Source of the DNA: Eledone cirrhosa
Lineage: Eukaryota
Reading direction: 5' to 3'
Length of the DNA: 64,000 nucleotides
NCBI GenBank assembly: GCA_964016885.1
Contig: OZ024743.1
Span: forward strand, 308,264,001 to 308,328,000
The notes beneath the pieces are model-generated. The model was given only the letters and a program-made list of their open reading frames with translations, ran no database searches and was not told where the DNA came from. A program made the translations under genes and the position numbers. This document shows positions 882-60,639 of the stretch, one piece after another; positions within the stretch are counted from its first letter, which is position 1, and each line of letters opens with the position of its first letter.

Positions 882-1410
882 GAAAAAATGAGAAATTAGA
901 AAGATTGAAAGGATGGACGGGGTGCAATTAGAAAGAATGTTTTTAGAGAAAAATAACAGGTCCATTCAAATTGTTGATGCTGGCGTTTTGTGTATGATAT
1001 ACTTTTTTTTAGAAAAGTGGATGATGAGCGCGCCTCATATATATATATATATATGGAAAACAAAGAATCAGTGATGCATCGGAACACAATTTATTATGTA
1101 TTACGGCGAACAGCTCGAGGTGCGATCTGTTTGTGGATCGAACCTGACTCTGGATTTGCAAGTTCCTCAGATACGTCTTGTGATTTAGAAGCAAATCCCC
1201 TTTCTGCTGGACTCCGACCCTTCGAATTTCTATCATCTGCCATCATCCTGTTTGCGCGGCCAGTCGATTGCTCATAGGAACAATGCAAAGGGCATACTTA
1301 AAACATATAAAAAGTATATAAAAAATACACATGAGGTTGTACATGAAAAAATACAATAGGCGGTACATAATAGAATACGCAGATAAAATACACACACTAC
1401 ATATATATAT

Positions 1411-1580
1411 ATTCATTTATTAGGGCTAAATAGTGAGTCTTGTTACTCTGGAGTTTCGCCTGTTTATTGCAGGTGAAATTCCAGAGTAACAAGACTCACT
1501 ACTTAGCTTTAATAAAATGAATATTAAAACTCTACTTCGGTATTGAGCACTCTTTTCTCTCAGCTGTCAACCGCATACAT
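1411..1580. mobile_element. PLE-derived fold-back, family B (hammerhead 3' halves head-to-head plus tail)
   Basis: Inverted arms of ~50 bp around 1462-1472 containing GAAA(C/T)TCCAGAGTA, then a tail with the ACTCTAC-TTCG-GTATTGAG hairpin. Homologous to 45550-45735, which keeps the CTGATGA core. Confidence 0.75.
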
Positions 1581-10343: not shown

Positions 10344-10532
10344 ATAGGAACAAGTAAGACCCCGACGGCTAAGCTCAAGCCGTTTCGACGGCTAATTCCA
10401 GAATTAGCCGTCGAAACGGCTTGAGCTCAGCCGTCGGGGTCTTACTTGTTCCTATTACCCACTCTACTACCCTAAGTATCGAGTACTTTGGTGTGTTATG
10501 GTCCACCTGGTTCCTTACCACATTTCCTTCGT
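10344..10532. mobile_element. PLE family A miniature fold-back (hammerhead 3' halves plus tail)
   Basis: 55-bp arms 10344-10398/10401-10455 with one mismatch, then a 77-nt tail. Flanked by (TA)n. Matches 59566-59697. Confidence 0.88.
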
Positions 10533-18649: not shown

Positions 18650-20575
18650 GGTTGACTTCCAGGATATAAATAAATATCTCTTTAACGCTCAATCCTCTAT
18701 AAATATAATTTTTATTGTCAAAAAGAATATAGTAGGAGTCATTCTGTAATAATTCTTCACACTTCCGTAGTCATCTCCTCGTCTCCCGTGTACTGTGGTT
18801 TTTACTCGAGAGTGACATTGTATTCATACGCAATTTACCATTGGTCTGTTTAACCTTATTGCATCTGAAAATGTTGCTATTGCGAGGTACGACGTAGTTC
18901 CACTACATCACCCTCTGCTTAGACTGGAAAGCAGCCGATAAAAATGAGGAGAAAATGTCTGCAAAGGTAACATAAGTCATGCAAAGCAAATACAAAAATG
19001 AAGAAAAAAGAGAAAAAAAAAGAATAGTTCATATGTAAATTGTTTTACAAAGTTTCTTGGGCCAATGAACATGATGACCACTACGAGTTGTGATGTATGT
19101 TGAAGGTAAAAGAGTGATTGTATGTGATTGTGGTGCTTGCGGTGGTGTTTGTATTGACACATTGTAGGAGGGGGGAGTATGAGGCTCTGGTGTGAGAGCA
19201 TCTGTGTAGGCCCACTTTAGTCTGCCAATAGAGACTGTGTCTTTATGTCCATTAAAGTCAATGGTGAAATGTTTGTTTGTACGTGCAAGTACGCGATAGG
19301 GTCCAGAATAAGGTGGAGTGAGAGGACTTCTCATTGCGTCATTTCTGACAAAAACATGGGTCCTCGAGGCAATGTCCCTAGGAACTGAAGATTTAATGGC
19401 TTGTTGCCTAGTGTTCATAGGAGGCAGGACTTGAAAATACGAACGCAAACGGGTCACATAGAGTGTAGGATCCTGAGTAGAAAGGTCAACTGAGGCAAGC
19501 ATCTGCCCTGGCAAAGATAAAGTAGTGCCGTACAAAAGCTCGGCTGGAGAGAATTCAAGGTCCTCTTTAATTGAAGTGCGGATACCGAGTAGTACTATGG
19601 GGAGGTAGTCGCTCCAATGTAGAATATCCGGATAGATACGCAATGCAGCCTTTAACTGGTGATGAAAACGCTCTACCATTCCATTAGATGCAGGATGGTA
19701 ACTGGTAGTCATAATGTGTTGAGCGCCGATGATATTTGATAGATCCGTGAAAATTTGAGATTCGAACTGCCTACCACGGTCTGTAGTAATAGTGGTAGGA
19801 ACTCCATAGCGCAATATCCATCCTGAAACCAGGGCTAACGCTACTGATTCAGTAGTTATGTCACTAAGAGAGATGGCTTCAGGCCATCAGGTGAAAGAGT
19901 CAATGCAGGTCAGGATGTATGAACATCTACGACTGGCAGGCCAAGATCCCACGATATCGATATGTCTGTGGCAAAAACGTGCGTCAGGTGTGCTAAATGT
20001 GCCGAGAGGTGCGCGAATATGTTTATGCACCTTCGACTTCTGACGAGACAAACAGGAACGTGACCAAGCAGTGATATCACGTTTCATATTCGTCCAGAAG
20101 AATCTAGCTGAAATGAGTTTCACTGTGGCGGAAATTCGAGGGTGTGCCAGACTGTGTAGAGAGTCGAAAACCATTCGACGATGAGTCTCTGGGACCAGAG
20201 GGCGAGGTGAATTTGTTGTAGCAGGTTGCTAATTCGGGTGAAGAGAGATCCAACGACTCTAGGGTGGGCTGTTCTGCAGCCATAAGATGCAAGTCCATAT
20301 TCGCAGGTGCTGACAAAGAATTGATGGGTAGGCGAGATAAGGCATCCGCCGCTGTATTTTGTTCACCAGGTATATGACGAATGTCATTCGTAAATTGGGA
20401 TATGAAGTCCAAATGACGAGTTTCTCGAGGTGAGTGTTTGTCCTAATTGGAACTAAATGCGAGCGTAAGTGGACGATGGTCAGTATAGATCGTAAATTGT
20501 CGGCCTTCCAGTGAATGCCGAAAGTTTTTGACATCAAGGAAAATGGCTAACAGTTCGCAGCCGAAGGTGCTATAG
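18650..20575 (-). mobile_element. 3' half of a Ty3/Gypsy LTR retrotransposon (RNase H end, integrase, PPT, 3' LTR)
   Basis: FTIYTDHRPL, HIPGEQNTAADALSR, HHCC region LHSLAHP...W, TDRGRQFES, YHPASNGMVERFH and PYSGPYRVL. Purine tract AGAGGGTGA precedes the LTR start TGTAGTGG at 18907. The distal LTR end is uncertain. Confidence 0.9.
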
Positions 20576-26193: not shown

Positions 26194-29100
26194 TCATCAT
26201 CATCATCATCAACGTTTAACGTCCGTGTTCCACGCTTGCATGGGTTTGGACGGGGGTAGTCCCACTTGAGGCAAGAGTGATTGTCTTGCTCGCATAGGAC
26301 TGTCTGGCAGGTTTTCTACAGTTGGATGCCCTTCCTAACACCAACCACATTTACAGTGTGGGTCTGGGAGGTTTTTACCGTGTTGCCTACACGGCCACAT
26401 TACAGCGTGGACTGTGTGTTTTTTTGTCGTGACACCTACACGATCTCATTTGTTTCGGCCTCGATGGCGCGGCACCAACATAACTTTACATAGAACGGGG
26501 TGGTGTGGATGGGGTGGGGGTGGGGGTGGTGGGACGGGGTGTATTTTGTTAGAGATGCCTACTGGCTGGAGTAGGTTTTACTATATATTTAGGTAAGGCG
26601 GGTCTTCTCTGTTACTGAGTACCGCCAAAGGTCTCGGTCCAGTGACATTGTCTTGGAGAGGTGTAAGTGTGTGATGTCGGAGTTTATCAGCTCGTCCCAG
26701 GTTTTTCTAGGTCTGCCTATTCCGTGACTACCGTCTATCTTTATTGCCCTGCACTTTGTTATACAGCTATCGACTTTCATGCGCATCACGTGTCCATACC
26801 AACGTAGCCTTCTCTCGAGTAAACAACATCTGATCCCTCTTATCTCTAATTTTTTCCTTAGTTCGTTTATGCTTTGCCGTTCACGTATATTACTGTTACA
26901 CATCCAGCGGAGCATGCAAGCTTCGTTCCTCTCTAGTCTGCGTATATCCTCTGCACACAATGCCCAGGTCTCACTGCCATGCAGCATTGCTGTTCGTATG
27001 CAGGCATCGTACAACCTGCCTTTCATTTTTAGTGAGAACCCTTTAGCAGCTAATAGTGGTATAAGCTCTCTGAACTTTTTCCAACCAGTTCTGACTCTAG
27101 CTACAGTACTTTCAGAGCACCCTCCCCCACTGCTGATTTTATCGCCCAGGTAACGGAAGCTGTCCACTATTTCTATAGAACCCTCTGCGCAATTGAAAGA
27201 GCTAGTAGTTTGTGGGCACTTGCTGCTACTTATTGCACCAGAGCACCGGCCACATGTAAAATCTATGTTCTTAGTTAGCTTACCTGTGATCCCACTACAT
27301 CTTTTATGCACCCATACTTTGCATTTAGGACATAAAATGGAGTTTCTACCTACGCCTTTCCTACACACCGAGCACGACCATTTCCCAGAAGGGACCGCCG
27401 CCTTGTTTTCTTTCCTACAAACTAGTACTTTGGTCTTAGCCAGGTTAATTTTAAGTCCTTTTGACTCTAGGCCGTGCTTCCATGTTTGGAATTTCTTCTC
27501 TAGCTCGGCCATTGATTCCGCTATGAGTGTCAGGTCGTCTGCGTATAGGAGTTCCCATGGGCAGCCTGTCTTGAACTCCTCTGTTATAGCCTGAAGGGCA
27601 ATAATAAATAGTAGTGGGCTGAGAACAGAGCCCTGATGGACGCCAACTTTTACGCTAAACTCTTCACTATATTCGTTGTTAATTCTAACCTTGCTGACTG
27701 TTTCTTTATACATGGCTTGTATAGCCCTCACAAGCCATTCGTCAACGCCTAGTTTTCTAAGAGCCCACCAGATAATGGAGCGGGGGACTCTGTCGAAGGC
27801 TTTCTCCAAGTCGACAAAAGCTAAGTAGAGGGGTTTACCTTTAGCTAGGTACTTCTCCTGTAGTTGTCGTACTATGAAAAGAGCGTCTGTGGTACTTTTG
27901 CCTGACACAAACCCGAACTGCATTTCATCTAGGTCAATTCTCTCTCTGATTAGTTGCGCTATTACTTTTTCCGTGACCTTCATGACCTGGTCGATTAATT
28001 TAATGCCTCTATAGTTACTCCTATCTAGGGCGTCTCCTTTACCCTTATAACAGTTAACGATGATGCTGCTATGCCAGTCCTTCGGAACAACCCCATTCTG
28101 TACGACTTGGTTAACTATGCGGGTGACCATGGTGTGTCCCACCGTGCCAGATGCCTTCAGCATCTCAGCAACTATTTCCGAAGGCCCAGCCGCCTTACCC
28201 GTCTTCATATCCTTGATTGCCTTACTTATTATACTCCCCTCGACTAACACTGCTGGTCCCTCTATTGGGTCGATATGGGGGAGACTGCCTTTCTCCCAAT
28301 TATTCTCCTCATTTAGTAGCCTTTCATAGTGACACTTCCAAGCTACCTTCTTATCAGCGTCGGTGATGGCAAGTGTGCCATCGTCGTTTAGTACACACTT
28401 CTCCCCGACAATATCACGGTTTTCCTTGACGCATTGCCTAGCAATCCTGAACACCTCACGTTTTTGGTCATCGCGTTGTAGAACATGCTTGAACTTTCTT
28501 TCCTCAGCTTCCCTTCTTGCTAAGTACACTTGTCTCCTAGCTTCCCTCCTGGCCACTTGATAGTCCTCTCTACTTCCCCCATCCCGCCATACTTTCCAAG
28601 CCTGCTTTTTGGCCTTAATTGACCCCTCCACCTTACTGTTCCACCACCATGTTACTCTCCTCCTGCCTACAGGCCTGCTCCAGCCACAGACTTCGTCTGT
28701 CGCCAACAGCAGGTTTGCTTTCAGAAATTCCCACTCTCCCTCTATATTGTCCGACTCTAAATGTTCTTCCTTACTGTCGAAAGCATCAAGTAATATGCTT
28801 TGAAATTTATTCCTGGCTGTGGGGTCCTTTAGCTTCCATATTTTCCTCCTGAGGATAGTCCTCTTCTGATGTCGAGTACGTCTCGTCCTGACTATGAGGT
28901 CGCTAATTATCAGTCTATGTTGGGAGGTGCATTCTTCATGGGGGAGGGATTTAGTGTTTACAACAGACACTCTGTCACGTCTTCTGGTAAGGATATAATC
29001 TACCTGGCTTGTGTGTTCCCCGGATCTATAGGTGATCAGGTGATTGTCACGTTTTTTGAAGTTAGTGTTACAGATAGTTAGGTTATTTGCATCACAGAAT

Positions 29101-29773
29101 TCCAGGATTCTGGAGCCTTCCTCATTTCTAGTACCAAACCCATAGCCTCCATGGATTTCGTCGTAGCCGTCACAATGTTGTCCAACGTGACCATTTAGGT
29201 CGCCTGCGATAATTATATAGTCACTGTCGGATATTTGGGCGGTAGTTAGCATCAGTGTCTCATAGAATCTGTCTTTTATAGTGCCGGGCAGTCCGGATTG
29301 GGGTGCGTACGCAGATATTACTGTCACCGTAGTTCTATTGAGGACAAGTCGTATTTTAATTATTCTGTCGTTCACTCTATTTACGTCTATTATCTTATCT
29401 GCCCACTTTTCTGCTACCATGATTCCTACTCCACCCAGCCCATCGTCGTTTCCCACCCAGAAAAGCTTATAACATCGTTTTTTACCCTCAATGAACCTAG
29501 CAGACCCACCCCTCCACCTGGTCTCTTGAATACAACAAACATCGACCTCCTTACGTTCAAGCATTTCTACAACCTCGTTAGCGCGACCCTTTAGGGTGCC
29601 TACATTTATGGTACCAACTCTGAAGTTTTGGATTGCGTTTGGGGGTTGGGGGCGGTGGGGGGCGGGGGGCGATGGGGTTATGTTAGCCGTCCGCGGTCGA
29701 AACAATGAGGAGTGCTCGCATTCTCGTCCAAGAGGTGAATTTGTCTTTATCTTTGGCATTGTCGCTGAGCGTC
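26194..29773 (-). mobile_element. Full-length or near-full-length RTE-clade LINE
   Basis: Single uninterrupted ORF, ~390-nt 3'UTR and (GAT)n tail. Possible low-complexity TSD TCATATAT at 26187 and 29772. Confidence 0.96.
26589..29759 (-). CDS. RTE LINE polyprotein: APE endonuclease, reverse transcriptase and PHD-type finger (1056 aa)
   Basis: APE motifs GTINVGTL, IQETRW, AYAPQ, GDLNGH, VDYIL and SQHRL. RT motifs NYRGIKL, QFGF, FVDLEKAFDRV, GVHQGSVLSP, YADD and FRYLG. C4HC3 cluster CSVC...CPKC..WVHKRC...CGRC. Confidence 0.97.
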   Translation of the reverse strand: MPKIKTNSPLGRECEHSSLFRPRTANITPSPPAPHRPQPPNAIQNFRVGTINVGTLKGRANEVVEMLERKEVDVCCIQETRWRGGSARFIEGKKRCYKLFWVGNDDGLGGVGIMVAEKWADKIIDVNRVNDRIIKIRLVLNRTTVTVISAYAPQSGLPGTIKDRFYETLMLTTAQISDSDYIIIAGDLNGHVGQHCDGYDEIHGGYGFGTRNEEGSRILEFCDANNLTICNTNFKKRDNHLITYRSGEHTSQVDYILTRRRDRVSVVNTKSLPHEECTSQHRLIISDLIVRTRRTRHQKRTILRRKIWKLKDPTARNKFQSILLDAFDSKEEHLESDNIEGEWEFLKANLLLATDEVCGWSRPVGRRRVTWWWNSKVEGSIKAKKQAWKVWRDGGSREDYQVARREARRQVYLARREAEERKFKHVLQRDDQKREVFRIARQCVKENRDIVGEKCVLNDDGTLAITDADKKVAWKCHYERLLNEENNWEKGSLPHIDPIEGPAVLVEGSIISKAIKDMKTGKAAGPSEIVAEMLKASGTVGHTMVTRIVNQVVQNGVVPKDWHSSIIVNCYKGKGDALDRSNYRGIKLIDQVMKVTEKVIAQLIRERIDLDEMQFGFVSGKSTTDALFIVRQLQEKYLAKGKPLYLAFVDLEKAFDRVPRSIIWWALRKLGVDEWLVRAIQAMYKETVSKVRINNEYSEEFSVKVGVHQGSVLSPLLFIIALQAITEEFKTGCPWELLYADDLTLIAESMAELEKKFQTWKHGLESKGLKINLAKTKVLVCRKENKAAVPSGKWSCSVCRKGVGRNSILCPKCKVWVHKRCSGITGKLTKNIDFTCGRCSGAISSSKCPQTTSSFNCAEGSIEIVDSFRYLGDKISSGGGCSESTVARVRTGWKKFRELIPLLAAKGFSLKMKGRLYDACIRTAMLHGSETWALCAEDIRRLERNEACMLRWMCNSNIRERQSINELRKKLEIRGIRCCLLERRLRWYGHVMRMKVDSCITKCRAIKIDGSHGIGRPRKTWDELINSDITHLHLSKTMSLDRDLWRYSVTEKTRLT

Positions 29774-29836: not shown

Positions 29837-31581
29837 CATCATCATCATCATCATCATCGGGTTTAGCGTCCGTGTTCCACGCTTGCATGGGTTTGGACGG
29901 GGGTTTTCCCACTTGAGGCAAGAGTGGTTGTCTTGCTCGCATAGGACTGTCTGGCGGGTTTTCTACAGCTGGATGCCCTTCCTAACACCAACCACATTTA
30001 CAGTGTGGGGCTGGGAGGTTTTTACCGTGTTGCCTACACGGCCACATTACAGCGTGGACTGTCTGGCGGGTTTTCTACAGCTGGATGCCCTTCCTAACAC
30101 CAACCACATTTACAGTGTGGGGCTGGGAGGTTTTTACCGTGTTGCCTACACGGCCACATTTACAGCGTGGACTGTGTGTTTTTTTGTCGTGACACCTACA
30201 CGATCTCATTTGTTTCGGCCTGGATGTTGTGGGACCAACATAACTTTACATTGAAAGGGGCGGTGTGGATGGGGTGGAGGTGGTGGGACGGGGGTGTGTT
30301 TTGATAGAGATGCCTACTGACTGTAGTAGGTTTTTACTTTGTATTTAGGTAAGGCGGGTCTTCTCTATTACTGAGTACCGCCAAAGGTCTCGGTCCAGTG
30401 ACATTGTCTTGGAGAGGTGTAAGCGTGTGAGGTCGGAATTTATCATGTCGTCCCAGGTTTTTCTGGGTCTGCCTACTCCGTGGCTACCGTCTATCTTTAT
30501 TGCCCTGCACTTTGTTATACAGCTGTCGTCTTTCATGCGCATCACGTGACCGTACCAACGTAGCCTTCTCTCGACTAAACAACATCTGATCCCTCTTATT
30601 TCTAATTTTTTCCTTAGTTCGTTTATGCTTTGCCGTTCACGTATATTACTATTGCACATCCAGCGGAGCATGCAAGCTTCGTTCCTCTCTAGTCTGCGTA
30701 TATCCAATGCACACAATGCCCAGGTCTCACTGCCATGCAGCATTGCTGTTCGTATGCAGGCATCGTATAACCTGCCTTTCATTTTTAGGGAGAACCCTCT
30801 AGCGGCTAATAGTGGTATAAGCTCTCTGAACTTTTTCCATCCAGTTCTGACTCTAGCTACTGTACTTTCAGAGCACCCTCCCCCACTGCTGATTTTGTCA
30901 CCCAGGTAACGGAAGCTGTCCACTATTTCTATAGAACCCTCTGCGCAGTTGAAGGAGCTAGTATTTTGTGGGCACTTGCTGCTACTTATTGCACCGGAGC
31001 ACCGGCCACATGTAAAATCTATGTTCTTAGTTAGCTTACCTGTGATCCCACTACATCTTTTATGCACCCATACTTTGCATTTGGGACATAAAATGGAGTT
31101 TCTACCTACGCCTTTCCTACACACTGAGCATGGCCATTTCCCAGAAGGGACCGCCGCCTTATTTTCTTTCCTACAAACTAGTACTTTAGTCTTAGCCAGG
31201 TTAATTTTAAGGCCTTTTGATTCTAGGACGTGCTTCCATGTTTGGAATTTCTTCTCTAGTTCAGTCATTGATTCAGCTATGAGCGTTAGATCATCTGCGT
31301 ATAGGAGTTCCCATGGGCAGCCGGTCTTGAACTCCTCTGTTATAGCCTGAAGGGCAATAATAAATAGTAGGGGGCTAAGAACAGAGCCCTGATGGACACC
31401 AACTTTTACGCTAAACTCTTCACTATATTCGTTGTTAATTCTAACCTTACTGACTGTTTCTTTATACATGGCTTGTATAGCTCTCACAAGCCATTCGTCA
31501 ACACCTAGTTTTCTAAGAGACCACCAGATAATGGAACGGGGGACTCTGTCGAAAGCTTTCTCCAAGTCGACGAAAGCTAAG
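29837..31581 (-). mobile_element. 5'-truncated RTE copy 2
   Basis: Open RT/C-terminal frame nearly identical to copy 1. TSD TATCTTCAT at 29828-29836 and 31582-31590. 112-bp tandem duplication in the 3'UTR. Confidence 0.96.
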
Positions 31582-32289
31582 TATCTTCATTACGTTTAAT
31601 GAGTAGTGACGCATGTTTCTCTATTGATTATCTCAAGGTTCGATCTGTATATACATATATATGTGTGTGTGTGTGTGTTTGAACAATAAAAACTGAAGTC
31701 AGGTGTAGGTAGAGAGTTAGTTCATTGTTTTACAGTCGTTTCAGAGGGCCAATTGATCGATGGAGATCGATGTATCGACTAGCATGGTAGTGGTTAAGTT
31801 ACTACCTATTTCTAGTCCTGAAAACCCTGTTCAATCAGCCGTCCTCTTCAGAAACACACATACACATACATACACACACATACACATATATATGTATGTG
31901 TATGAGTATATATATACACACACACATATACAACAACTACAGACATATCTCCATCTACACAGATATATACTCATATACAGGTATACTCATTGATATTTAG
32001 GCTTTAGGATGAGTTTAAGAGATTAGAAGTAATCTAAATTATATTATAAATTATGCAAGTAAATTATTCTATTATAGAGAGAGTTGAATATTTGAAAATA
32101 ATTACAGGATTGATATATAAATACTTATATTGTCTAGAAATACCTAATATAGTATTTTAAAAAATGAAGATAAAGTGAAATAAACACACTTAGGTTGGGA
32201 AAGTGGTGAAATCTCATTCTTAATATAGATACTTGTCTAACGAACCAGTAGAAACTAAATAAATAGATTAGGTTGGGTCATATATTCTA

Positions 32290-39712: not shown

Positions 39713-42639
39713 TTATGGTTGTGATATATTTTGGAATGAATTGATTTGGATTGAAGTACCATAAAATACCAACTGGTAGATACATCGTCAAAATACTGAC
39801 ATGTGTTGTCATAGCCTCAGACAATACAGGTCTGAGCATCATGCCAAACTTGTATGCTCTATTTTGATGTGGTTTCTACAACTTCATTTTACATTGTGTA
39901 CTAGCTCTGCCATACTGGGTGCATTTTACCATGGCGCCATCATAACTACATTGCAGAGTCTATTCGGTGCAGCACTATCTTGGGTTTGCACCTGGAAAGC
40001 ACCTCTCAAAGATAGGATGTTTTGTGGAAGATCAGCTATCACTCCTCTCCATGCTATTAATGTTATCCAAGGGAAATGCAAAGGCCAATACAGCCTGGTG
40101 CCAATATGAATGGACTGGAGAAACATGTAATTTATATTGTGTCTTGCTCAAGGACACAATGTTCTGCCTAGTCTGGGAATCAAACTCAAGACTTTACAAT
40201 TATGTGCCAAACACTATAACTACTAAACCACATGCCTTAACCAGCACTGAAACAAGAAATCCTAATTTCCCCATGACTAAATATACAGCTAACTCCTATT
40301 AGGTCCAGCTCTCTGTGCACTGAGTTCAAATTTTGCCAATGCCAAATTTGTCTTTTGTTGTTGATTTTTTAGGTCAATAAATAAAGTACCATTCCAGTGG
40401 CAGTGGATTGGTGTTATTGTTAAAAAGTTGGGCATAACGATTTGTAGTATCTGATCTGACTGTGCATTCTGAGTTGAAATTCTGCCAGGAATTGTGTCTG
40501 GCAGATAGTACCACCAATGGAAATAGTTTCTTTGGTCCAAACATAGTATTAGGTCTTTTTCTTTGCCATTATAGTCTCCAATGTAAGGTTAATAATCCAA
40601 AAGCAATAATTTCAGTCTCCGATGTCTTCATTTTGGAAAAAAAACAGGTTTTACACTCATTTAATCCTTTAGTTACCAACCAGTCTTGTTCTATGAAATA
40701 AAACCCTCCATTTTAAAGGTTTCCAACATAATTTTATATAAGAACCTTACATTAAGTTACTATCTTAGTAATAAAATAATTAATAATTTTAGTAAATCCC
40801 TCAAAATTTTTCAATAATCAATTAAAATAGAGTGTATTTCATTAGAAATGTGGTCATGAAAGGGTTAATTTATGTTTATGTCCAGTTGTTGTTGTTATTA
40901 CAGCTCACATCTAGGTTTTGCTGGCCACCTTTGAAGTTAGATCCCATAAGAGGTTTCTTGGATGTTAAGCATCCGATTCACCCTGTAAGAGGGTCATGCT
41001 GGTGCCATGCCAAAAAGCACCCAGTTCGCCCTGTAATGTGGTTGTACTAGTCCTACAACAAAAAGCACACAGTCCACCCTGTAAGGTGGTAGAGCTGGTG
41101 TCTTGAAAAAAAATCTCCAATCCACCATGTAATGTGGTTGGCATTAGGAAAGGTATCCAGCCATAGAAAACCAAGCCCCAAATGGAATGTATAAGCAAGA
41201 TGTGGTCACCTAACCTATCTGGCCTCATTATGCAACAGCCTGTTTAACCCATGCAAGCTTGGATAATAGATGTTAAATGGTAATGAGTATTAAGAAGGAC
41301 ATCCAGCTGTATAAAACATATCAAATTTAGGTTTGAGGGGACCTTTCAGTTGAGCCAAGAGCATGATAACCTCTCTAGTGAAGGTACTATGATAAAATAT
41401 ACCCACTATACTCTGTAAAGTGCTCATGTAAGTGGGATCACATCCTATCTTAGTAGCTTTGATTAAATACTGACTTGGTCTGTGAAAACCTGTCCAACCC
41501 ATGCCAGTGTGAAAGAACAGATAATGTCATATGTTCTGTGTATGGATTATTTTGGTTTTAACTAGAATATAAAACAAATAAACTTGAAATAATAGTTTGA
41601 TAGAACTTTACAAAATCTTGTTTCAAAACAAATAACAGACCTTCAGACAATATCAAGCAAATCCATCCCAATAGGGTCAATTACCAAGCTACAGAAAATA
41701 AAATTAGAGGTAAGTCTTTATCATAATCATGATTGCCATCATTCTCACCTCTACCATCATCATTACTACCACCATCATCACCATTAACACCATCATCATC
41801 ATCATCATCATCATCACAAACATCATCCTCACCATCATCACCATTGTCACCGTCATCACCACAACTACCATTACCAACACTTTCATACATTAAAGACATA
41901 ACCTCACTAGTGTTGGTGCCATGATAACATGTACTCTGTACTCTCTGTGTTAGGAAAGGCATCCATCTGTAAAAATTATGCCATGCCAAACATGCAACAT
42001 ATGAGCAAGATGTAGTCCTCAAACCCATCTAGGAGGACAGTAATTTGCAATAAGAACTCACTTAGACGATAATGACTTATCTAACCCATGCCAACATAGA
42101 ATTATGTGTCATCTTTCCATGCTGGCATGGGTTGGATGGTTTGTCAATGACCAAGTCTGTGTTCAATTGGAGCCAAAGTCCTCTCAGTCAGGCTGGGGCA
42201 GGGAGGAGTATCTTAGCTTACATACATTTTAGTTTTTGCATGGTTCCTATGGCTAAATGCCTTATCACTTTATAGAATGCATTTTGATGTAGCATTCATT
42301 AACATTAGGGAATGTGTCATATCCTTGACACAACTGAAAAGTCTTCTGAACATCTTGTTTGACATAGTTTCTATGAGTGGATGCCCTTTCTAACACCAAC
42401 CATCTTACTGAGTGTACCGGGAACACTTTATCATGGTACCAGCATTAGAGGGGTTCTGGTGCCCTTGACAACTGAAAAATTTCACTCCACCTTTGGTTGA
42501 AGGGTTTCTATGACTGGATGCCCTTCCTAATGTCATCTCCTTTCAAGGGTATTGGGTGCATTTTATCGTGGCACAAGTATAAGTTTTATCAACAGTTTGA
42601 TTAGCATGTTTTCTATTTTGTATATACTTTATTTATCAG

Positions 42640-43247
42640 GTAATCAACAACAGCAGCAGCAGCAGCAGCAGCAACAACAACAACAACACCACCACCACCA
42701 CCAACAACAACAACCTACTGAAAGCAAGAACACATTACCAGATGTTAGACCTGCTGTTGCACAAGACCATCCCAAAGCAGGATTTCACACTGAGAGTAAG
42801 ATGCAAGCAGCAAATACAAATACAGATTATAAAGGAGACACTGATGGAAATATCCAGTCTAACTCAGCCTCTAGCATTAATGATAGAAAGGATAATGTAA
42901 ATGATGGAAGTGAGACTGATTCCGCTGCAGTTAACAGCAATGAGTCTACTACTACAAGATCAACAACATATCACCAGAACAGTTCACTTACCTCACAGAA
43001 GACATCAAATAATGTAGCGAAATTCTTTGAACATTCCAACTACATTCTGAAGAAAAAAGTTGTTGTAGCAAGTCCTACAGACAGTGCCCAAGGCCCTATA
43101 GTAGCACTTGCTCTTGGACTCTCTTTCACAACTATGCTGTTAATCTTTGTCGGCTGTCGTTTACACCGCGTGAAACGCCGCCTATGCAAAGGGAGAGCAC
43201 TACATTCAAATGAAGCAGATTACCTCATCAACGGTAAGTACTTGTAA
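42640..43247 (+). CDS. Terminal exon of a mucin-like single-pass membrane protein (C11orf24/MANSC1-like cytoplasmic tail)
   Basis: Acceptor TTTATTTATCAG, then polyQ/H, S/T/N-rich stalk, TM helix IVALALGLSFTTMLLIFVGC, basic stop-transfer RLHRVKRR and tail EADYLINGKYL*, resembling the DYLINGxY motif of C11orf24/MANSC1. Confidence 0.85.
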
Positions 43248-45549: not shown

Positions 45550-45733
45550 ATTTATTATTATTATTAAGGCTAAAAAGTGAGTCTGGTTACTCTGGAGTTT
45601 CGCCTGTTTATCATAGGATCATCAGATGAAACTCCAGAGTAATAAGACTCACTTTTTAGCTTTAATAATAATGAATATTAAAACTCTACTTTGGTATTGA
45701 GTATCCTTTCTCTCAGCCATCAACCACATATGG

Positions 45734-46762: not shown

Positions 46763-46971
46763 GGGCTTTTTGAAACCTATTAACTATATTAATATATATA
46801 TATATATATATATACACATACACACACATTTATGTTGTGTGGTTCGCCAATAGGTAGAACTGGTCATTCCATTTAGTTAACCATGATGTAATAGTAAGAA
46901 AAGCACTCTACGTTATACAACTCATCAATCGTAGATGTTGAATCTCGTGGCTGGTGCAGGAATGGGGTTAA

Positions 46972-47398
46972 ATATTTATTTAATTAAAACAACAGAAGGC
47001 CAAACAGGAAATAACCCTTTAAAGTTTTAACGTTGCAAAAACACTATATATATTTCAATGGCCTTGTTACATAAGACCCTGGCAACATCATCAGGTACAG
47101 ACTGCATTAGTTAATCAATAAATAGAATTATGGCAAACACAAACAGAAAATATATTTTAGTCAGAGATGGCCCACAAATTCAGTGTTAATGTTGCGGCAG
47201 ATGGGCTGCGATTCTCTGTTTGTGTTTTCCGTAATACCTTCTATTGATTAATTAATTATGCAATCTGCACCTGATGATGTTGCCAGAGTCTTGCGTAACC
47301 AGGCCATTGAAATATATATATATAGTGTTTTTTGCAACATTAAAACTTTAAAGGGATATTTCCTGTCTGGCCTACTGTTGTTTTAATTAAATAAATAT
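46972..47398. mobile_element. Large fold-back (~180-bp arms) with a hammerhead motif in each arm
   Basis: Plus arm 47267-47328 reads GCAC CTGATGA ... GAAA (TA)6 GTGT, with a mirror copy in the left arm. Confidence 0.82.
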
Positions 47399-47451: not shown

Positions 47452-48173
47452 AAAGGAATGACAACAATATTGTTAATGTTAATTTTTCACAATGTTTTGT
47501 AATGTTTGGTATGTTTTGTTGATTGTCATCTAATATGAGACACCAGTTCACAAATAGGTGAAATAATAAATGCATTCAAAGAAACACCAGATAAATTCAT
47601 TTCTTTTCTTCTACTTTTCATTTCTTCTGTAGCAGCTGTGATGTTGGATTTAGAGTGTTTCTTGTTATGAATTTGTATTTTTTTTTAAATTCTGTAAATA
47701 ATAAATCTGTCTTTCTTCCCACCGTTTTCATCTTCTAAAACCTACCTAAAATTGTTTTGGCTAATGTTGAATCTGAGATTTCAATGATATTTTTTGCATT
47801 AATTAACATTTATGTTTTGTGTTATGTTATAGATAAAAGCTTTATCTTTGTTTATATCCTGCCAATGCAATGCTTTGTATTCCCTCGCTTCTTATTGTTA
47901 AGATGACCATCCACAAATTTCTTATTTTTTAATTATTTCTAATTCATAACTATGATTTTTTTTTTTTTTTTTTTTAAACTCGTCAACAGCTTTTCTTTTC
48001 TTTTCTATGTATTGGTAAGAGGCTCCTTGGAATTTTCTAATGAATTTTTCTTTTAGAAGAAACCCAATAGTCACTATAAACTTCAGTAATGTGTAATGTC
48101 TTATTGTGCACCATCATTTTTGTTATCTGTAGTCAGAATCTACTTAATGTGTACTGAATAATATATATATATA

Positions 48174-48279
48174 ACGAAGGAGGTGTGGTAAGGAACCAGA
48201 TGGACCATAACGCACCAGAGTCCAGAAATAGCCGTTGAAACGGCTTGAGCTCTGCCGTCGGGGTCAAACATTTTCCTAT
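48174..48279. mobile_element. PLE family A miniature insertion in flipped orientation
   Basis: 48174-48221 is the reverse complement of the tail end. 48222-48279 is the hammerhead 3' half ending TTCCTAT. (TA)n on both sides. Confidence 0.82.
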
Positions 48280-49077
48280 ATATATATATATATATATATA
48301 AGTACAGTACAGAACCACTATCAGAAAAAATATAATAATAAAACATTGCTTATAATTTTTTTATAATTATATATATTTTTTTAAATTTCAAGTAATAAAC
48401 AGTGCTTTATTACTTCTTCTGACTATGGTAAATTCTATATGAATAGAGCAGTGACAAGCTTCTTAGCAACATTATAGGATGTGATTCCTTCAAGTTAAAA
48501 TAGATGTTTATAGGAAACAAAGTTTTAGCTAAGGTTCTGTAACAAAATCATCCCACCTTAAATACTGATATTTAAATTGAAAAAATTCTTTTTTTTTTTT
48601 AATTTTTTATATTCAGTGGATTACTTGTTCTTTGTGTGGTGTAAAATGGTTAATAGTAGTCAACTGAGAAATGGCTACTTTCTCTCTCTAACCATATTCT
48701 GATAACTTTTTATTAAATTTAGACTATCATTTATATGGGACCTTTTTTTATATTCAAAATTGTTTTTGCTAGTTTGTAAACCAAAATAGTTGTGATTTTC
48801 CAAAGAAACATTGTACAACATAGTTTTTTTTTTCAACCTGTTGTGTATGTCTTACAACTACCTTGACTACAAGCTGATAGGAAATCCAGTTGTTCTTGAT
48901 TACTAATATAATAGTAAAGTTAATGACATATCTTCACTGAATGTTTTCCCACCAAACTTTACTGTCAGTCATCTGGAGATGAAAGAACAGTAAATGTTTT
49001 ATGTATGAATGTATGGAGAAATTGGCTGTGCCCCTACGACTCAAATCTGAAGATAGGGGCCCATAGATGAATAGAAA

Positions 49078-51247: not shown

Positions 51248-51939
51248 AAATAAAGGGACCCTTATACGAGGTATAAGTGCGTATAAGGGTCCCTTTATTT
51301 CCGTCCCACCTAGTTTATTTTTATTATTATTTATTTTTTTATTCTTCATTATATATATATTTTTTTTAAAATTTATTTATCTATTCTTTTATTCACTTAT
51401 TTGTTTATTTATTTATTTAAGTATTTCTTTAGTCTAGCAATAGCGAGAGACTTAAGTCTTAGTAACCAGACTTTGCTTATTTTTTTTCTCTCTCAGTACT
51501 TTTTATAGTTTTACCCTTCATCGTTCTACTTACCGTTTCGACTTCCTCCCCCTCCCCAGTATCCTCTTTGACCTCACGCCCAGCTGTAGCCGGCACTACC
51601 AACGCATGAATGGGTCTACTCCACCCCCTCTCCCTTTTTCTCCTACCGGCAGGTTTAGCTACGCCTTCCCCCACCAATTTGCCATCACAGATTTACTACT
51701 AACATGTGATGTGACCAATCCTGGTGATTATCTCTTTGACCATATATGGAATTACCCCTTGATCAGCTCGGCTATTTAAATACCAGAATAAATGTTTATT
51801 CAGTACAGAATTAGCTGTCGAAACGGCCTGAGCTCAGCCGTTGGGGTCTTACTTGTTCCTATTACCTACTCTACTACACTAAGTATTGAGTACTTTGGTG
51901 CGTTATGGTCCACCTGGTTCCTTACCACATTTCCTTCGT
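51248..51939 (+). mobile_element. PLE family A pseudo-LTR with hammerhead (51754-51847) and a 33-bp inverted 5' piece
   Basis: Close match to 59035-59697. The hammerhead is slightly decayed (TTGATCA core, GTT site). Confidence 0.88.
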
Positions 51940-51940
51940 T

Positions 51941-53700
51941 CATCATCATCATCATCATCATCAACGTTTAACGTCCGTGTTCCACGCTTGCATGGGTTTG
52001 GATGGGGGTTTTCCCACTTGAGGCAAGAGTGATTATCTTGCTCGCATAGGACTATCTGGCGGGTTTTCTACAGCTGGATGCCCTTCCTAACACCAACCAC
52101 ATTTACAGTGTGGGGCTGGGAGGTTTTTACCGTGTTGCCTACACGGCCACATTTCAGCGTGGACTGTCTGGCGGGTTTTCCACAGCTGGATGCCCTTCCT
52201 AACACCAACCACATTTACAGTGTGGGGCTGGGAGGTTTTTACTGTGTTGCCTACACGGCCACATTACAGCGTGAACTATGTATTTTTTTGTCGTGACACC
52301 TACACGATCTCATTTGTTTTGGCCTGGATGTTGTGGCACCAACATAACTTTACATTGAAAGGGGCGGTGTGGATGGGGTGGGGGGTGGGACGGGGGTGTA
52401 TTTTGTTAGAGATGCCTACTGACTGTAGTAGGTTTTACTTTGTATTTAGGTAAGGCGGGTCTTCTCTATTACTGAGTACCGCCAAAGGTCTCGGTCCAGT
52501 GACATTGTCTTGGTGAGGTGTAAGTGTGTGAGGTCGGAATTTATCAGCTCGTCCCAGGTCTTTCTGGGTCTGCCTATTCCGTGGCTACCATCTATCTTTA
52601 TTGCCCTGCACTTTGTTATACAGCTATCGTCTTTCATGCGCATCACGTGACCATACTAACGTAGCCTTCTCTCGAGTAAACAACATCTGATCCCTCTTAT
52701 TTCTAATTTTTCCTGAGTTTGTTTATGCTTTGCCGTTCACGTATATTACTATTACACATCCAGCGGAGCATGCAAGCTTCGTTTCTCTCTAGTCTGCGTA
52801 TATCCTCTGCACACAATGCCCAGGTCTCACTGCCATGCAACATTGCTGTTCGTATGCAGGCATCATACAACCTGCCTTTCATTTTTAGGGAGAACCCTTT
52901 AGCGGCTAATAGTGGTATAAGCTCTCTGAACTTTTTCCATCCAGTTCTGACTCTAGCTACTGTACTTTCAGAGCACCCTCCCCCACTGCTGATTTTGTCA
53001 CCCAGGTAACGGAAGCTGTCCACTATTTCTATAGAACCCTCTGCGCAGTTGAAAGAGCTAGTATTTTGTGGGCACTTGCTGCTACTTATTGCACCAGAGC
53101 ACCGGCCACATGTAAAATCTATGTTCTTAGTTAGCTTACCTGTGATCCCACTACATCTTTTATGCACCCATACTTTGCATTTGGGACACAAAATGGAGTT
53201 TCTACCTACGCCTTTCCTACACACTGAGCATGGCCACTTCCCGGAAGGGACCGCCGCCTTATTTTCTTTCTTACAAACTAGAACTTTAGTCTTAGCCAGG
53301 TTAATTTTAAGGCCTTTTGATTCTAGGCCGTGCTTCCATGTTTGGAATTTCTTCTCTAGCTCGGCCATTGATTCAGCTATGAGTGTTAGGTCATCTGCGT
53401 ATAGGAGTTCCCATGGGCAACCGGTCTTGAACTCCTCTGTTATAGCCTGAAGGGCAATAATAAATAGTAGGGAGCTGAGAACAGAGCCCTGATGGACGCC
53501 AACTTTTACGCTAAACTCTTCACTATATTCGTTGTTAATTCTAACCTTGCTGACTGTTTCTTTATACATGGCTTGTATAGCTCTCACAAGCCATTCGTCA
53601 GCACCTAGTTTTCTAAGAGCCCACCAGATAATGGAACGGGGGACTCTGTCGAAGGCTTTCTCCAAGTCGACAAAAGCTAAGTATAGGGGTTTACTTTTAG
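51941..53700 (-). mobile_element. 5'-truncated RTE copy 3, inserted at the PLE/(TA)n boundary
   Basis: Same family as copies 1 and 2, with a 1-bp frameshift near 52710 and W>stop near 52657. Same 112-bp 3'UTR duplication as copy 2. Confidence 0.95.
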
Positions 53701-53732
<32 letters not shown>

Positions 53733-54757
53733 TGCCATGATAAAATGCACTCTGTCCACTCTGTAAAGTGGTTCGCCATGGGAAGGGTATCCATAGAAAC
53801 CAAACCAGAATGGAATATATGAATAAGTTATGGTCATCTGAACTGTCAAATCTCAGAATGTGACAACCTGTCTAACACATACCAACATGGAAAATAGATG
53901 TAAAACAGTGGTTTTCTTCATAAATATATAATATTCCATTACTCTGACAATTAGCTATAAATAGGACACTGTTTGTATTTAGAGGTTTAACTCTAAAATA
54001 AAACCTGGAAAAAGGAATATATAAAAAAAAAGTATTTGTTACCAAAAAACTTTGCAATTAGCGAATTTCCTTCGTAATCATCCCACTCCCTCAATCATAT
54101 CACAATAGAACTCATAATTTTATGGGTTTTTTCTTTTCTTTTCTTTTTAATAAATTGTAGTAATTTACCTATAGTTAGAAATGATATAATGTTTATCTTT
54201 TAACATCCTGTACCATATGAAACCATATTAGCAAGCGATTCTTGGATACTCTAATATTGCAAACTTTCACAATGATCTGTCCACTGATAAAGACGCTATA
54301 AACATTTGAATCAACGAACCCATTTCTATATATCTTTTGCTAAACCATCACAGTATGTGATAATACTGCAGAACTTCATAATAATCTAGTAAAAATGATA
54401 TGAACTAACAAATTAACAAACCTGTTTTTAGACATCTATTGTATCATTACAGGATGTTATGAATTAAAATGTCTTTTAGTCAAATACTGTAAATGTTCAC
54501 AATGATCTGTCCACTAGTAAAGATATTATAAACATTTGAATTAACAAACTTGTTTTTCGACATGTTCTGCTAAATTATTACAGAATGACTTATAATCTTA
54601 TCAAAAGAAACTAGTTTTAGACTGTATATTGAGGCAGTGACTCAGTAGTCAATTGTTGCTAAATGAAACTCTTAGCTCAGTTTTGATCTTCAGAAAGAAA
54701 CCACTTACTGCACTAAACTATACCATCACATTTTCTGTTCTTCCTCCCTCGATTGTA

Positions 54758-57563: not shown

Positions 57564-57594
<31 letters not shown>

Positions 57595-57606
57595 GGAACA
57601 AGTAAG

Positions 57607-57700
57607 ACCCCGACGGCTGAGCTCAAGCCGTTTCGACGGCTAATTCTGTACTGAATAAAAATTTATTCTGGTATTTAAATAGCCGAGCTTATCAAGAGGT
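57607..57700 (-). ncRNA. Type I hammerhead ribozyme, U3-A8 core variant
   Basis: ACCTC TTGATAA G...C GAAA CGGCTTGAGCTCAGCCG TC GGGGT. Confidence 0.82.
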
Positions 57701-58886
57701 AATTCCATATATGGTCGAAGAGATAATGACCAGGATTGGTCACATCACAAGTTAGTAGTAAACCTGTGATGGCAAATTGGTGGGGGAAGGGGTAGCTAAA
57801 CCTGCCGGTAGGAGAAAAAGGGAGAGGGGTGGAGTAGACCCATTCATGCGTTGGTAGTGCCAGCTACAGCTGGGCGTGAGGTCAAAGAAGATACTGGGGA
57901 GGGGGAGGAAGTCGAAACGGTAAGTAGAACAATGAAAGGTAAAACTATAAAAGGTACTGGGAGAGAAAAAAAAAAATAAGCAAAGTCTGGTTACTAAAAC
58001 TTAAGTCTCTCGCTATTGCTAGGCAAAAGAAATACATAAATAAATAAATAAATAAACAAATAAGTGAAAAGAATAGATAAATAAATTTAAAAAAAAAATA
58101 TATATATATAATGAAGAATAAAAAAAATAAACAATAATAATAATAAAAATAAACTAGGTGGGACGGAAATAAAGGGACCCTTATACGAGGTATAAGTGCG
58201 TGTATCGTACGGTGACGTGTCAACGGGGGGGGGGGGGCAACATACTAAAGAGACCACCACGAAATAATAAAGGTTTCTACCCCAATCACAGGGCCAGCAA
58301 CCACTCAGTGCAAGAAAGTAAACTAGTACGAGAATATAATTCAGGGTCCCGCAAAAAAATACTAGTGCTAACTCTAAGGTTACCGCCACGGAACAAAAAG
58401 TCTTATACAAGCTATATGAAAGATCGTAAGAAATAAAAGTAAAGAACGGAAAATTAATACAGAAACACACCCCCCACCCCACAAAAAAAAGAAAAAGAAG
58501 AAAGAAATACTGGATAAACGAGAAATTAAAGCAAGGATGCCACTAAGAAATATAGAAGGCACGGAAAAAAGGGACGGCGGTCGGAGAAGGGGGCGAGTAT
58601 CCAAAGTCTAACACCTCTGCTATAAAAAGCGGAGTCAGCCAAATCTATCATAGAATAGGGGAGGGGGTGGGGGTGCTGAAGCTACAAGGGACCGAGGGGC
58701 TACCTCGGGTGGGCGAGAAAAAGACGACGACAAGGAAAAGGAACTGGGGTAGAAGGACTAGGGAGGGATGGGGGGAAGGAGGAAATATAGAGGAAGCGAT
58801 AAAAGAATGTAAAATATCTTACGTCTCCATTGGCAAGCAGGGGTTACTCATTACAAAATAGGCAAGTGGGGTGTTATAGCCCTAGT

Positions 58887-59021
58887 CTAACCCCCCGGGT
58901 CATTATGGGGTTTGAGGGCGAGGTAGGTCCTACGTAATCGGTGTTTACATGCAGTAACCAGTTCATCTTTCTTGTTTAGGAGTTGGTCCGTCGAAAACAA
59001 CATTTGTAAAGTTTCCTCCGA
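58887..59021 (-). pseudogene. Last 44 codons of a PLE GIY-YIG endonuclease (not in the ORF track)
   Basis: SEETLQMLFSTDQLLNKKDELVTACKHRLRRTYLALKPHNDPGG* aligns with SEVHEI...LLNHRNELIITCPH of the 32.3-kb PLE remnant. Confidence 0.85.
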
Positions 59022-59511
59022 GCACTTATACCTCGTATAAGGGTCCCTTTATTTCCGTCCCACCTAGTTTATTTTTATTATTATTATTGTTTATTTTTTT
59101 ATTCTTCATTATATATATATATATTTTTTTTTTTTTTTAAATTTATTTATCTATTCTTTTCACTTATTTGTTTATTTATTTATTTATGTATTTCTTTTGC
59201 CTAGCAATAGCGAGAGACTTAAGTCTTAGTAACCAGACTTTGCTTATTTTTTTTTTTTTTTCTCTCCCAGTACCTTTCATTGTTCTACTTACCGTTTCGA
59301 CTTCCTCCCCCTCCCCAGTATCTTCTTTGACCTCACGCCCAGCTGTAGCTGGCACTACCAACGCATGAATGGGTCTACTCCATCCCTCTCCCTTTTTCTC
59401 CTACCGGCAGGTTTAGCTACCCCTTCCCCCACCAATTTGCCATCACAGATTTACTACTAACTTGTGATGTGACCAATCCTGGTCATTATCTCTTCGACCA
59501 TATATGGAATT

Positions 59512-59605
59512 ACCCCTTGATAAGCTCGGCTATTTAAATACCAGAATAAATTTTTATTCAGTACAGAATTAGCCGTCGAAACGGTTTGAGCTCAGCCGTC
59601 GGGGT
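59512..59605 (+). ncRNA. Type I hammerhead ribozyme, U3-A8 core variant
   Basis: Stem I ACCCC/GGGGT, core TTGATAA (59517-59523), long stem II (CGGCTA/TAGCCG, GAATAAA/TTTATTC), GAAA at 59578-59581, stem III ACGGTT.../...AGCCGT. Predicted cleavage after GTC at 59600. Confidence 0.85.
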
Positions 59606-60639
59606 CTTACTTGTTCCTATTACCCACTCTACTACCCTAAGTATTGAGTACTTTGGTGCGTTATGGTCCACCTGGTTCCTTACCACATTTCCTTCGTTAT
59701 ATATATATATATATATATATATATTGGGGAAATTGTTTGACCAGGGAAGAACTCTGCAGGAGTAGACTTCGAACGAAAGACAGCCCACCCTCGATCAACC
59801 CATCTAGCTCTGTGCCCTTCAGTTTTTAAAGACAGTAGGGTATAGATTTGGGGGGCTTTGGTTGCTATTTCTAGCACAAGTCAACATGGAAAGTCCTTAT
59901 ATGATTACTCAACAGGCTAGAAATAGCAGCCAAATATTTCTAAAACAATAAACTAACTCTCTTTAAATGCATATTAATGATCTGTGATACAGGGTATTTT
60001 CCAATCTTTCAGATCTTACCTCCTGGACCTTACCTTGAACTTATTTGATCTGTCTGATTTAAAATCATAATAGCACATTGAGTTTCTCGGTATATTGTTT
60101 AGTTAAGACAATGTAGATATCTCCATTTCAAAATGTTTCAAACAGATATCGATGAGAAATAATATGTTCTATCATTAATATGGTAGCTGAAACATTTTAA
60201 CAAGCTGTCCTCTGTATAAATCCAGACCAGTCAAATAACTGAAACCAAATCAGTGAAAGACCTTATTTATTTTTAATGTCATTGTTTATTTGCTTTGTTT
60301 AATATATCTATGCTACTAAAACATCACTGCATCTCTCCACCTTTAAACATTAACAATATGAAATTAGAAGAACCTTGCAGTTCCTTTCAAATACTAGGCC
60401 TCGTTTTCGCTAAGGATCTCTCGTGTCGAACATACAATACTAAACAGGGCTGTAACTACTTTTAACAGGCTGGCTCTTCTCTTCAACATAGTTGGATAAG
60501 GATAAAATTTAGTTGAAAGGAAATGGAAGAAAATGATTTATATTTAACAATTGAACCAAAATAATAATTTAATGGAGTGGGAATAACAGTAAACAGACAT
60601 TCTCTCAATCACAGACAAGAAGGGACTTTGGGACTATCC

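Follow-up and report, generated by a model that had tools for sequence, protein, structure and literature searches.

Twin bulged hairpins adjoin the short and long ends of Hydra-clade PLEs in Eledone cirrhosa and are candidate RT docking sites

What is a small bulged hairpin doing beside the ends of so many inverted repeats in one stretch of the Eledone cirrhosa genome? The window, which is the whole stretch of DNA analysed here, is 64 kb long (64,000 nucleotides; contig OZ024743.1, positions 308,264,001 to 308,328,000), and a first-pass annotation had listed five hairpin strings in it, all of which were found where it had placed them. The pattern ACTCTACN{3,12}GTATTGAG gave 4 exact matches in the window against 0.00 expected from 100 shuffles, and the fifth copy, at 10461, was missed by the exact pattern since its bulge is TC. 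A covariance model, whose training rows included the 45683 copy alone of these five, returned the five copies as its sole matches in the window with E <0.01. The Rfam covariance models produced no match at the five hairpins with E values up to 5.

Two of the copies belong to a repeat designated family B. The first hairpin (HP1, with its 3' ACT flank) is at 1529..1551 on the plus strand, folds weakly (-1.2 kcal/mol) and has a UUCG loop that is specific to family B. Its outer pair is an A-C mismatch (ACTC/GAGC), which is judged from the letters to be a decayed state, most family-B copies having GAGT. It is preceded by head-to-head inverted arms (1409..1524) containing the 3' half of a minimal hammerhead (1475-1488), known intact from other family-B copies; the left arm runs to the short end, where ..GAATAT passes into a TA repeat at about 1409. 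The remaining family-B tail, up to the long end, occupies approximately 1552..1580 (+). The second family-B HP1 is at 45683..45705 (+), with inverted arms at 45553-45677 and a hammerhead 3' half at 45628-45641. The other three copies belong to family A. These are HP1 at 10461..10487 (+), with inverted arms at 10344-10455 of which the left is at the short end; at 51868..51894 (+), recognised by sequence within a copy spanning 51280-51940; and at 59626..59652 (+), where the short-end position is 59620 and the long end 59700. The last stands behind a family-A hammerhead (59512..59605, +), a U3-A8 core variant (TTGATAA...GAAA) with a long helix II, identified by sequence and a descriptor search and predicted to cut after 59600; its helix II is about 50 nt long and its stem III loop is palindromic.

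A long family-A inverted arm (57592..59024, minus strand) ends at the short end (57592), and its translation gives the last 45 aa of an endonuclease (58890-59024, minus strand). In a small family-A inverted copy (48161..48300), one arm is at the long end, truncated before HP1, and its partner reaches the short end. Five inverted arms (1409, 45553, 10344, 57592 and ~48277) have outer ends reading ...GAATAT, ...AAATAT or ...CCTAT, at which they merge into (TA)n. Behind the hammerhead of a third family, a degenerate long-loop hairpin (46902..46968, minus strand) was recognised by its position and 3' half, its 5' half being mutated, and an inverted repeat of this family was seen in the sequence at 46972-47398. 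Elsewhere the window contains an intact 1,060-aa non-LTR retrotransposon frame (26589-29771, minus strand) with an APE endonuclease, an RT and a PHD finger after the RT, 5'-truncated copies of which lie near 30056-31586 and 52161-53827, and a retroviral-type integrase fragment of an LTR retrotransposon, seen from its translation (19029-19886, minus strand). A candidate last exon at 42531-43247 (+) probably encodes the end of a host type-I membrane protein with the C-terminus ADYLINGKYL; it had no significant Pfam match, and its product presumably resembles the tails of MANSC1/C11orf24.

The host repeats had been proposed to be PLE ends, and this was supported. Intact tandem copies, whose unit is 3,531 bp long and contains a 784-aa frame, were reached from the last 45 codons of the long family-A arm. 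The protein is a single ORF with an RT, in which YRDD is present, and with a GIY-YIG-type EN at its C-terminus; it is 37% identical over 696 aa to that of locus L392 and had no Pfam match in the Pfam search. It contains AKRLRWR, SDKTG (DKT for DKG), CNCPDRSIC (the CxCX5C linker), CNLC..E (CxxC) and CKH (CxH), and it is by RWR, DKT, CxCX5C, CxxC and CxH that the Hydra clade is defined (Craig et al. 2021, PMC8557442). A Neptune-type control (L061) had DKG and none of the other Hydra signatures. Family A also has a hammerhead in its pLTR and inserts into (TA)n; like published Hydra elements, it thus combines RWR/RWK and the other protein motifs with a hammerhead and (TA)n targets (PMC8557442), by which it is classed as a Hydra-clade PLE. 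It differs in its unit length, 3,531 bp against a typical '<3 kb', and in that the motif and its doubling are unannotated in the published set, 'hairpin' and 'stem-loop' occurring 0 times in the main text of PMC8557442. The family-A protein was judged by eye to be similar to the N-termini of the Hydra elements in File S7. A Nematis-clade label for family A was considered and dropped, as DKG and a CX2-5CxxC-type linker are absent and the Hydra variants are present instead. Family A is very young: 150/150 scored matches to its EN tail were 100% identical. Near-identical 3,531-bp units with the intact 784-aa frame stand in tandem arrays, for example L158-L160 (C1:437195500-437219000), and another array of family-A-like hairpin segments, with many repeats at short spacing, was seen in L293-L304 (C1:14.24-14.27 Mb).

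Family B has a textbook minimal hammerhead, with 17 exact copies of one form. Among the loci traced, no ORF could be linked to family B or to family C, the copies of both being old and 5'-truncated, and the Hydra RTs adjoining family-B/C loci (L205 and L428) end in the hammerheads of other families. Family B was placed in the Hydra clade by its hammerhead, twin hairpins and TA targets, that is, by architecture alone. When some 1.06 Mb of loci was searched with the hammerhead descriptor, the ribozyme proved to be followed by this hairpin in many other families. All ENs whose ends could be followed to the hairpin without a nested insert were of Hydra type, namely those of A, G, H and another three or four families, and the carrier proteins compared were 36-53% identical to that of family A; for several Hydra-type ENs the hairpin was not traceable. 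The first-pass annotation had described the families sharing the hairpin as unrelated. This did not hold, as every carrier with a linked protein is Hydra-clade, and the hairpin families are, on sequence comparison, divergent relatives, family B by architecture alone. The GIY-YIG Pfam search returned mainly Neptune-type and some Poseidon-type ENs, and the covariance model found the motif absent from the tails of these two types (14 loci). Four model matches with E <0.05 in these 14 loci were rejected as nested copies of families A, C and E. The Neptune-type family on the minus strand of L061 (1570 and 6549) has a 938-aa ORF and a U3-A8 hammerhead, and its tail contains a different small stem, GTGT-AGG-ACAC.

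The motif found behind the hammerhead of Hydra-clade PLEs can be written as RCTC, a stem of at least 3 bp with its loop, a UY/UA bulge, GAGY and RCU. Across the 3.0-Gb genome, the N{3,10} version of the pattern had 58,597 exact matches and its reversed control 28. A second pattern, which excluded the TAC/GTA inner stem, gave 55,878 further matches against 2,812 in the control, a count that may be inflated, as GAGYRCTC is nearly palindromic and the 3' half alone yields false reverse matches. For the structure, 43 family-level hairpins (25 from this genome and 18 from other organisms) were aligned and 49 own-genome singletons were dropped. The three inner pairs were formed in 42/43, 41/43 and 35/43 hairpins, where shuffles gave means of 29.8, 22.9 and 17.9 and 0/20,000 shuffles were as high; the rows are related by descent, so the shuffle counts are not probabilities. 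Altogether 118/129 inner pairs were formed, against 29-52/129 in slid controls, although part of the own-genome rows had been selected with inner pairing imposed; in the 18 foreign hairpins, where no inner pairing was imposed, the count was 47/54 against 13-22 when slid. RNAalifold recovered the same 7 pairs unprompted from a 20-row alignment, in which the pair counts lay above all 500 shuffles on 4/5 measures. Covariation of the stem is supported by these counts.

In the outer stem, which together with the bulge belonged to the search pattern, pair 1 was A-U in 17 hairpins and G-C in 24, pair 3 was U-A in 41 and A-U in 2, and pairs 2 and 4 were constant C-G. The bulge was UU in 29, UC in 8 and UA in 6. 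The 3' flank read RCU in 38/43 hairpins, so that, of the earlier description (stem and bulge kept, loop and all flanks different), the covarying stem stood and the free 3' flank did not. There were 10 G-U pairs and 1 A-C, which favours the hammerhead-sense strand; besides RNA, plus-strand single-stranded DNA would also tolerate G-T.

Hydra-type elements were also recovered from eight metagenome loci and from 18 loci co-binned in GTDB genomes. The latter (L400-L417) are Hydra-type PLE contigs in several GTDB bacterial genome bins and are very likely animal host DNA. With L417 left out, the covariance model found the hairpin in 13 of the 25 foreign loci (E <0.05), many of them by construction. 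By eye, 5/6 Hydra consensi in File S7 of PMC8557442 show the hairpin or a variant, unannotated, among them consensi from coral, sea cucumber and an arthropod. Hydra-2_Amil, Hydra-1_Ajap (twice) and Hydra-2_Ajap have the hairpin, Hydra-1_Crog has a variant with GCCC/GGGC, Hydra-1_Obim has a degenerate form, and the Hydra-1_Amil consensus ends before the hairpin position. No relative was found in the viral contig collection (viral_contigs). In the literature searched, which included PMC8557442 and stopped short of subscription papers and some supplements, neither the motif nor its doubling was described, and the part of the retrozyme preprint available (bioRxiv 10.64898/2026.07.22.740005) does not mention the motif.

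The position of the hairpin became clear from copies that are joined in partial tandems, in which the read-through order is hammerhead, HP1, a second hairpin (HP2) and ORF. HP2 was seen exclusively in such read-through copies, just past the long (tail) end, and the distance from HP1 to HP2, which is the tail, was 61-90 nt in eight read-through elements. It was present in 21/21 read-through family-A copies among the matches listed, in families G and H, and in 4 elements from other organisms. For family B its presence was a prediction that 3 of 4 pattern matches (3 loci) bore out, with HP2 4 nt past the long end. The HP2 copies of G, H and L392 had just 0-2 good inner pairs. No HP2 was found for family C; an apparent one in L425 was rejected as another family's tail in reverse, GAGYRCTC being nearly palindromic. 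In the foreign loci the long end lay 2, 4 and 4 nt before HP2 (L392/L393, L400 and L406, respectively) and the short end 3-4 nt before HP1 (L405/L414).

Ends flanked by TA were counted in loci that had been fetched by motif searches and that do not form a random sample. In family A, 39 of 97 ends were at HP1-5 and 52 at HP2-3; in family H, 16 of 27 were at HP1-2 and 9 at HP2-3; in family G, 18 of 41 were at HP1-4 and 13 at HP2-4/-6; and in family E, 19/21 were at HP1-4. Inserted copies therefore end mainly just 5' of HP1 (short) or HP2 (long), at a TAT or ATA that merges with (TA)n. The claim that the short arm always stops at TAT just before the hairpin describes this prevailing position, and fails as a rule: in family B, 15 of 57 ends were at -4 and 8 further upstream, and in family C2 the 9 ends were scattered from -12 to -5. 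In family H over a dozen TAT/ATA sites between the hairpins were almost unused (2/27 ends), so microhomology is not enough to fix where an element ends. On the family-A reference, contigs of two runs from a single sample had (AT)n loose ends exactly at HP1-5 and HP2-3, and the summed depth dropped about 200-fold beyond HP2. The positional link is thus stronger than first claimed, as both ends have their own hairpin, and the optional tail corresponds to the interval between the twin hairpins; this, with HP2 beyond the long end, is new relative to the first-pass annotation. As judged from sequence, the motif is a genuine cis element that covaries, is clade-wide and is strongly tied in position to both ends. 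The published Hydra-1_Ajap consensus starts 2 nt before HP1, contains HP2 and ends ..ATATATT (File S7), and in L406:2385, too, the full-length element starts at or just before HP1. On these two cases, the 5' junction may likewise use a TAT beside a hairpin.

The reading that we prefer, and hold to be reasonably probable, is that the motif forms a bulged hairpin in the RNA, conserved and doubled in Hydra-clade PLEs, each copy of which is likely an RT docking site with the cDNA start 2-6 nt 5' of it. From the anatomy and the end positions, both seen directly, we infer the binding, the priming and the RNA itself. On the sense read-through RNA, the protein would dock on the C-G pairs, the bulge and the RCU flank, the endonuclease would nick the (TA)n target, and the nicked 3' end would pair over 3-4 nt with the UAU/AUA adjoining the hairpin. 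The cDNA synthesis would proceed away from the hairpin; a start at HP1 would omit the tail, and a start at HP2 would copy HP1 and the spacer, giving the optional tail.

The closest experimental parallel is PAc, a Poseidon-clade PLE, for which internal initiation in vitro was reported at both tail ends, the two start sites bracketing the tail, with RNA 3' of the start sites required to +172 (Frangieh et al. 2024, PMC11167929). An 'AC-rich stem loop' at the internal start sites has already been reported for this one element, and in the printed template a stem-loop with a bulge can be made out by eye from about +119 to +150, immediately on the 3' side of the +111-118 start (PMC11167929). PAc differs in clade and sequence, and the published work as seen concerns one element, with no covariation and no twin motif; its initiation is described as non-homologous to the target, whereas the Hydra ends carry TAT/ATA microhomology to (TA)n (PMC11167929). 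Internal initiation on an uncut template in PAc also bears on an unlikely alternative, in which RNA is processed under the direction of the hairpins, by cleavage or termination immediately 5' of each, and the RT starts at a true RNA 3' end by ordinary TPRT. It predicts genomic ends and a strand bias that are no different. The one RNA run found, with a small share, covers 4353-4486 of L158 alone and neither hairpin, and no transcript ends could be mapped. PAc, however, starts internally on uncut template in vitro (PMC11167929), and cuts 5' of both HP1 and HP2 would need a second nuclease besides the hammerhead 25-40 nt upstream.

It is rather improbable that the hairpins act in DNA, where the GIY-YIG EN would recognise a plus-strand single-stranded or cruciform intermediate, cut just 5' of it and resolve the insertion. 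Craig et al. ascribe the tail to EN-mediated resolution (PMC8557442), Frangieh et al. cite that recognition and cutting of DNA by the D. virilis EN depended on the tail (PMC11167929), and the C-G pairs and the RCT flank are conserved in sequence. Against this, the ratio of G-U to A-C pairs (10 to 1) speaks against the minus (cDNA) strand, the ends merge into (TA)n as target priming predicts, and the RT start sites of PAc match its genomic ends (PMC11167929). That the hairpins serve translation or packaging in the 5' leader or reflect coding constraint, with the ends near them by chance TAT microhomologies, is very improbable. In its favour, HP2 begins 38-87 nt upstream of the ATG with which the conserved N-terminus starts, the frame of family A stays open across both hairpins, and the N-terminal extensions predicted for several homologues contain LSTL, which is what the 3' half translates to. 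Against it, the inner lengths are 6-45 nt and occur in all three frames, the family-B frame from ATGAATATT closes within HP1, and the between-hairpin TAT/ATA sites of family H are almost unused (2/27 ends).

The proposed docking of the RT at each hairpin can be set beside other small RNA stems. LINE 3' stem-loops are generally copied into the insert since priming is 3' of them, whereas in the PLEs studied here the hairpin used is left out. They too are small stem-loops, and in stringent LINEs (eel UnaL2 and zebrafish LINEs) retrotransposition needs the stem-loop, which a protein of the element itself recognises (PMC1636434, PMC4176376). The first-pass annotation had used the term 'template-boundary element'. 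In telomerase RNA this element (TBE) defines the 5' boundary of the template and stops synthesis (PMC4993307), so the term does not fit a hairpin that is 3' of the inferred start and uncopied. Both are short template-adjacent stems with conserved sequence at the base, RT-bound in ciliates in the case of the TBE (PMC4993307), and the two are compared by position, with opposite geometry, and not by homology; HP1 is, moreover, copied through in long-end copies, unlike a TBE that halts synthesis. The hairpin carriers have minimal hammerhead ribozymes, including the U3-A8 core variant in family A, and the hairpin is an element separate from them; in families A, B and C it starts 25-40 nt 3' of the predicted cut. 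The PLE 'tail' was described as an optional 30-40 bp extension at one end, in direct and inverted copies (PMC8557442, PMC3846280); the extension seen here is likewise optional and at one end, and differs in its length of 61-90 nt, the distance between two motif copies.

As a signature of PLEs the optional tail has long been noted and is unexplained, and internal initiation is known for one element, in which the RNA signal is undefined. A covarying motif a few bases past both ends, in several animal phyla, gives a precise target for experiments in which it is mutated, restored or moved, and family A, young and with intact tandem copies, offers starting material for such an assay. When Hydra elements are annotated, the motif also serves as a sequence marker and as a rule for their boundaries; these elements are far commoner in the E. 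cirrhosa genome (>100,000 matches with two patterns) than the small published set suggests. More tentatively, and with considerable doubt, the portable hairpin of about 25 nt could encode the start site for an entire PLE clade, and the tail of PLEs in general could result from its doubling, perhaps with one copy for each subunit of an RT dimer, other clades such as that of PAc using bulged stem-loops of different sequence with the same geometry. If true, the sister group of telomerase would have its first defined RT-RNA recognition module, and internal initiation could be placed at will on any RNA.
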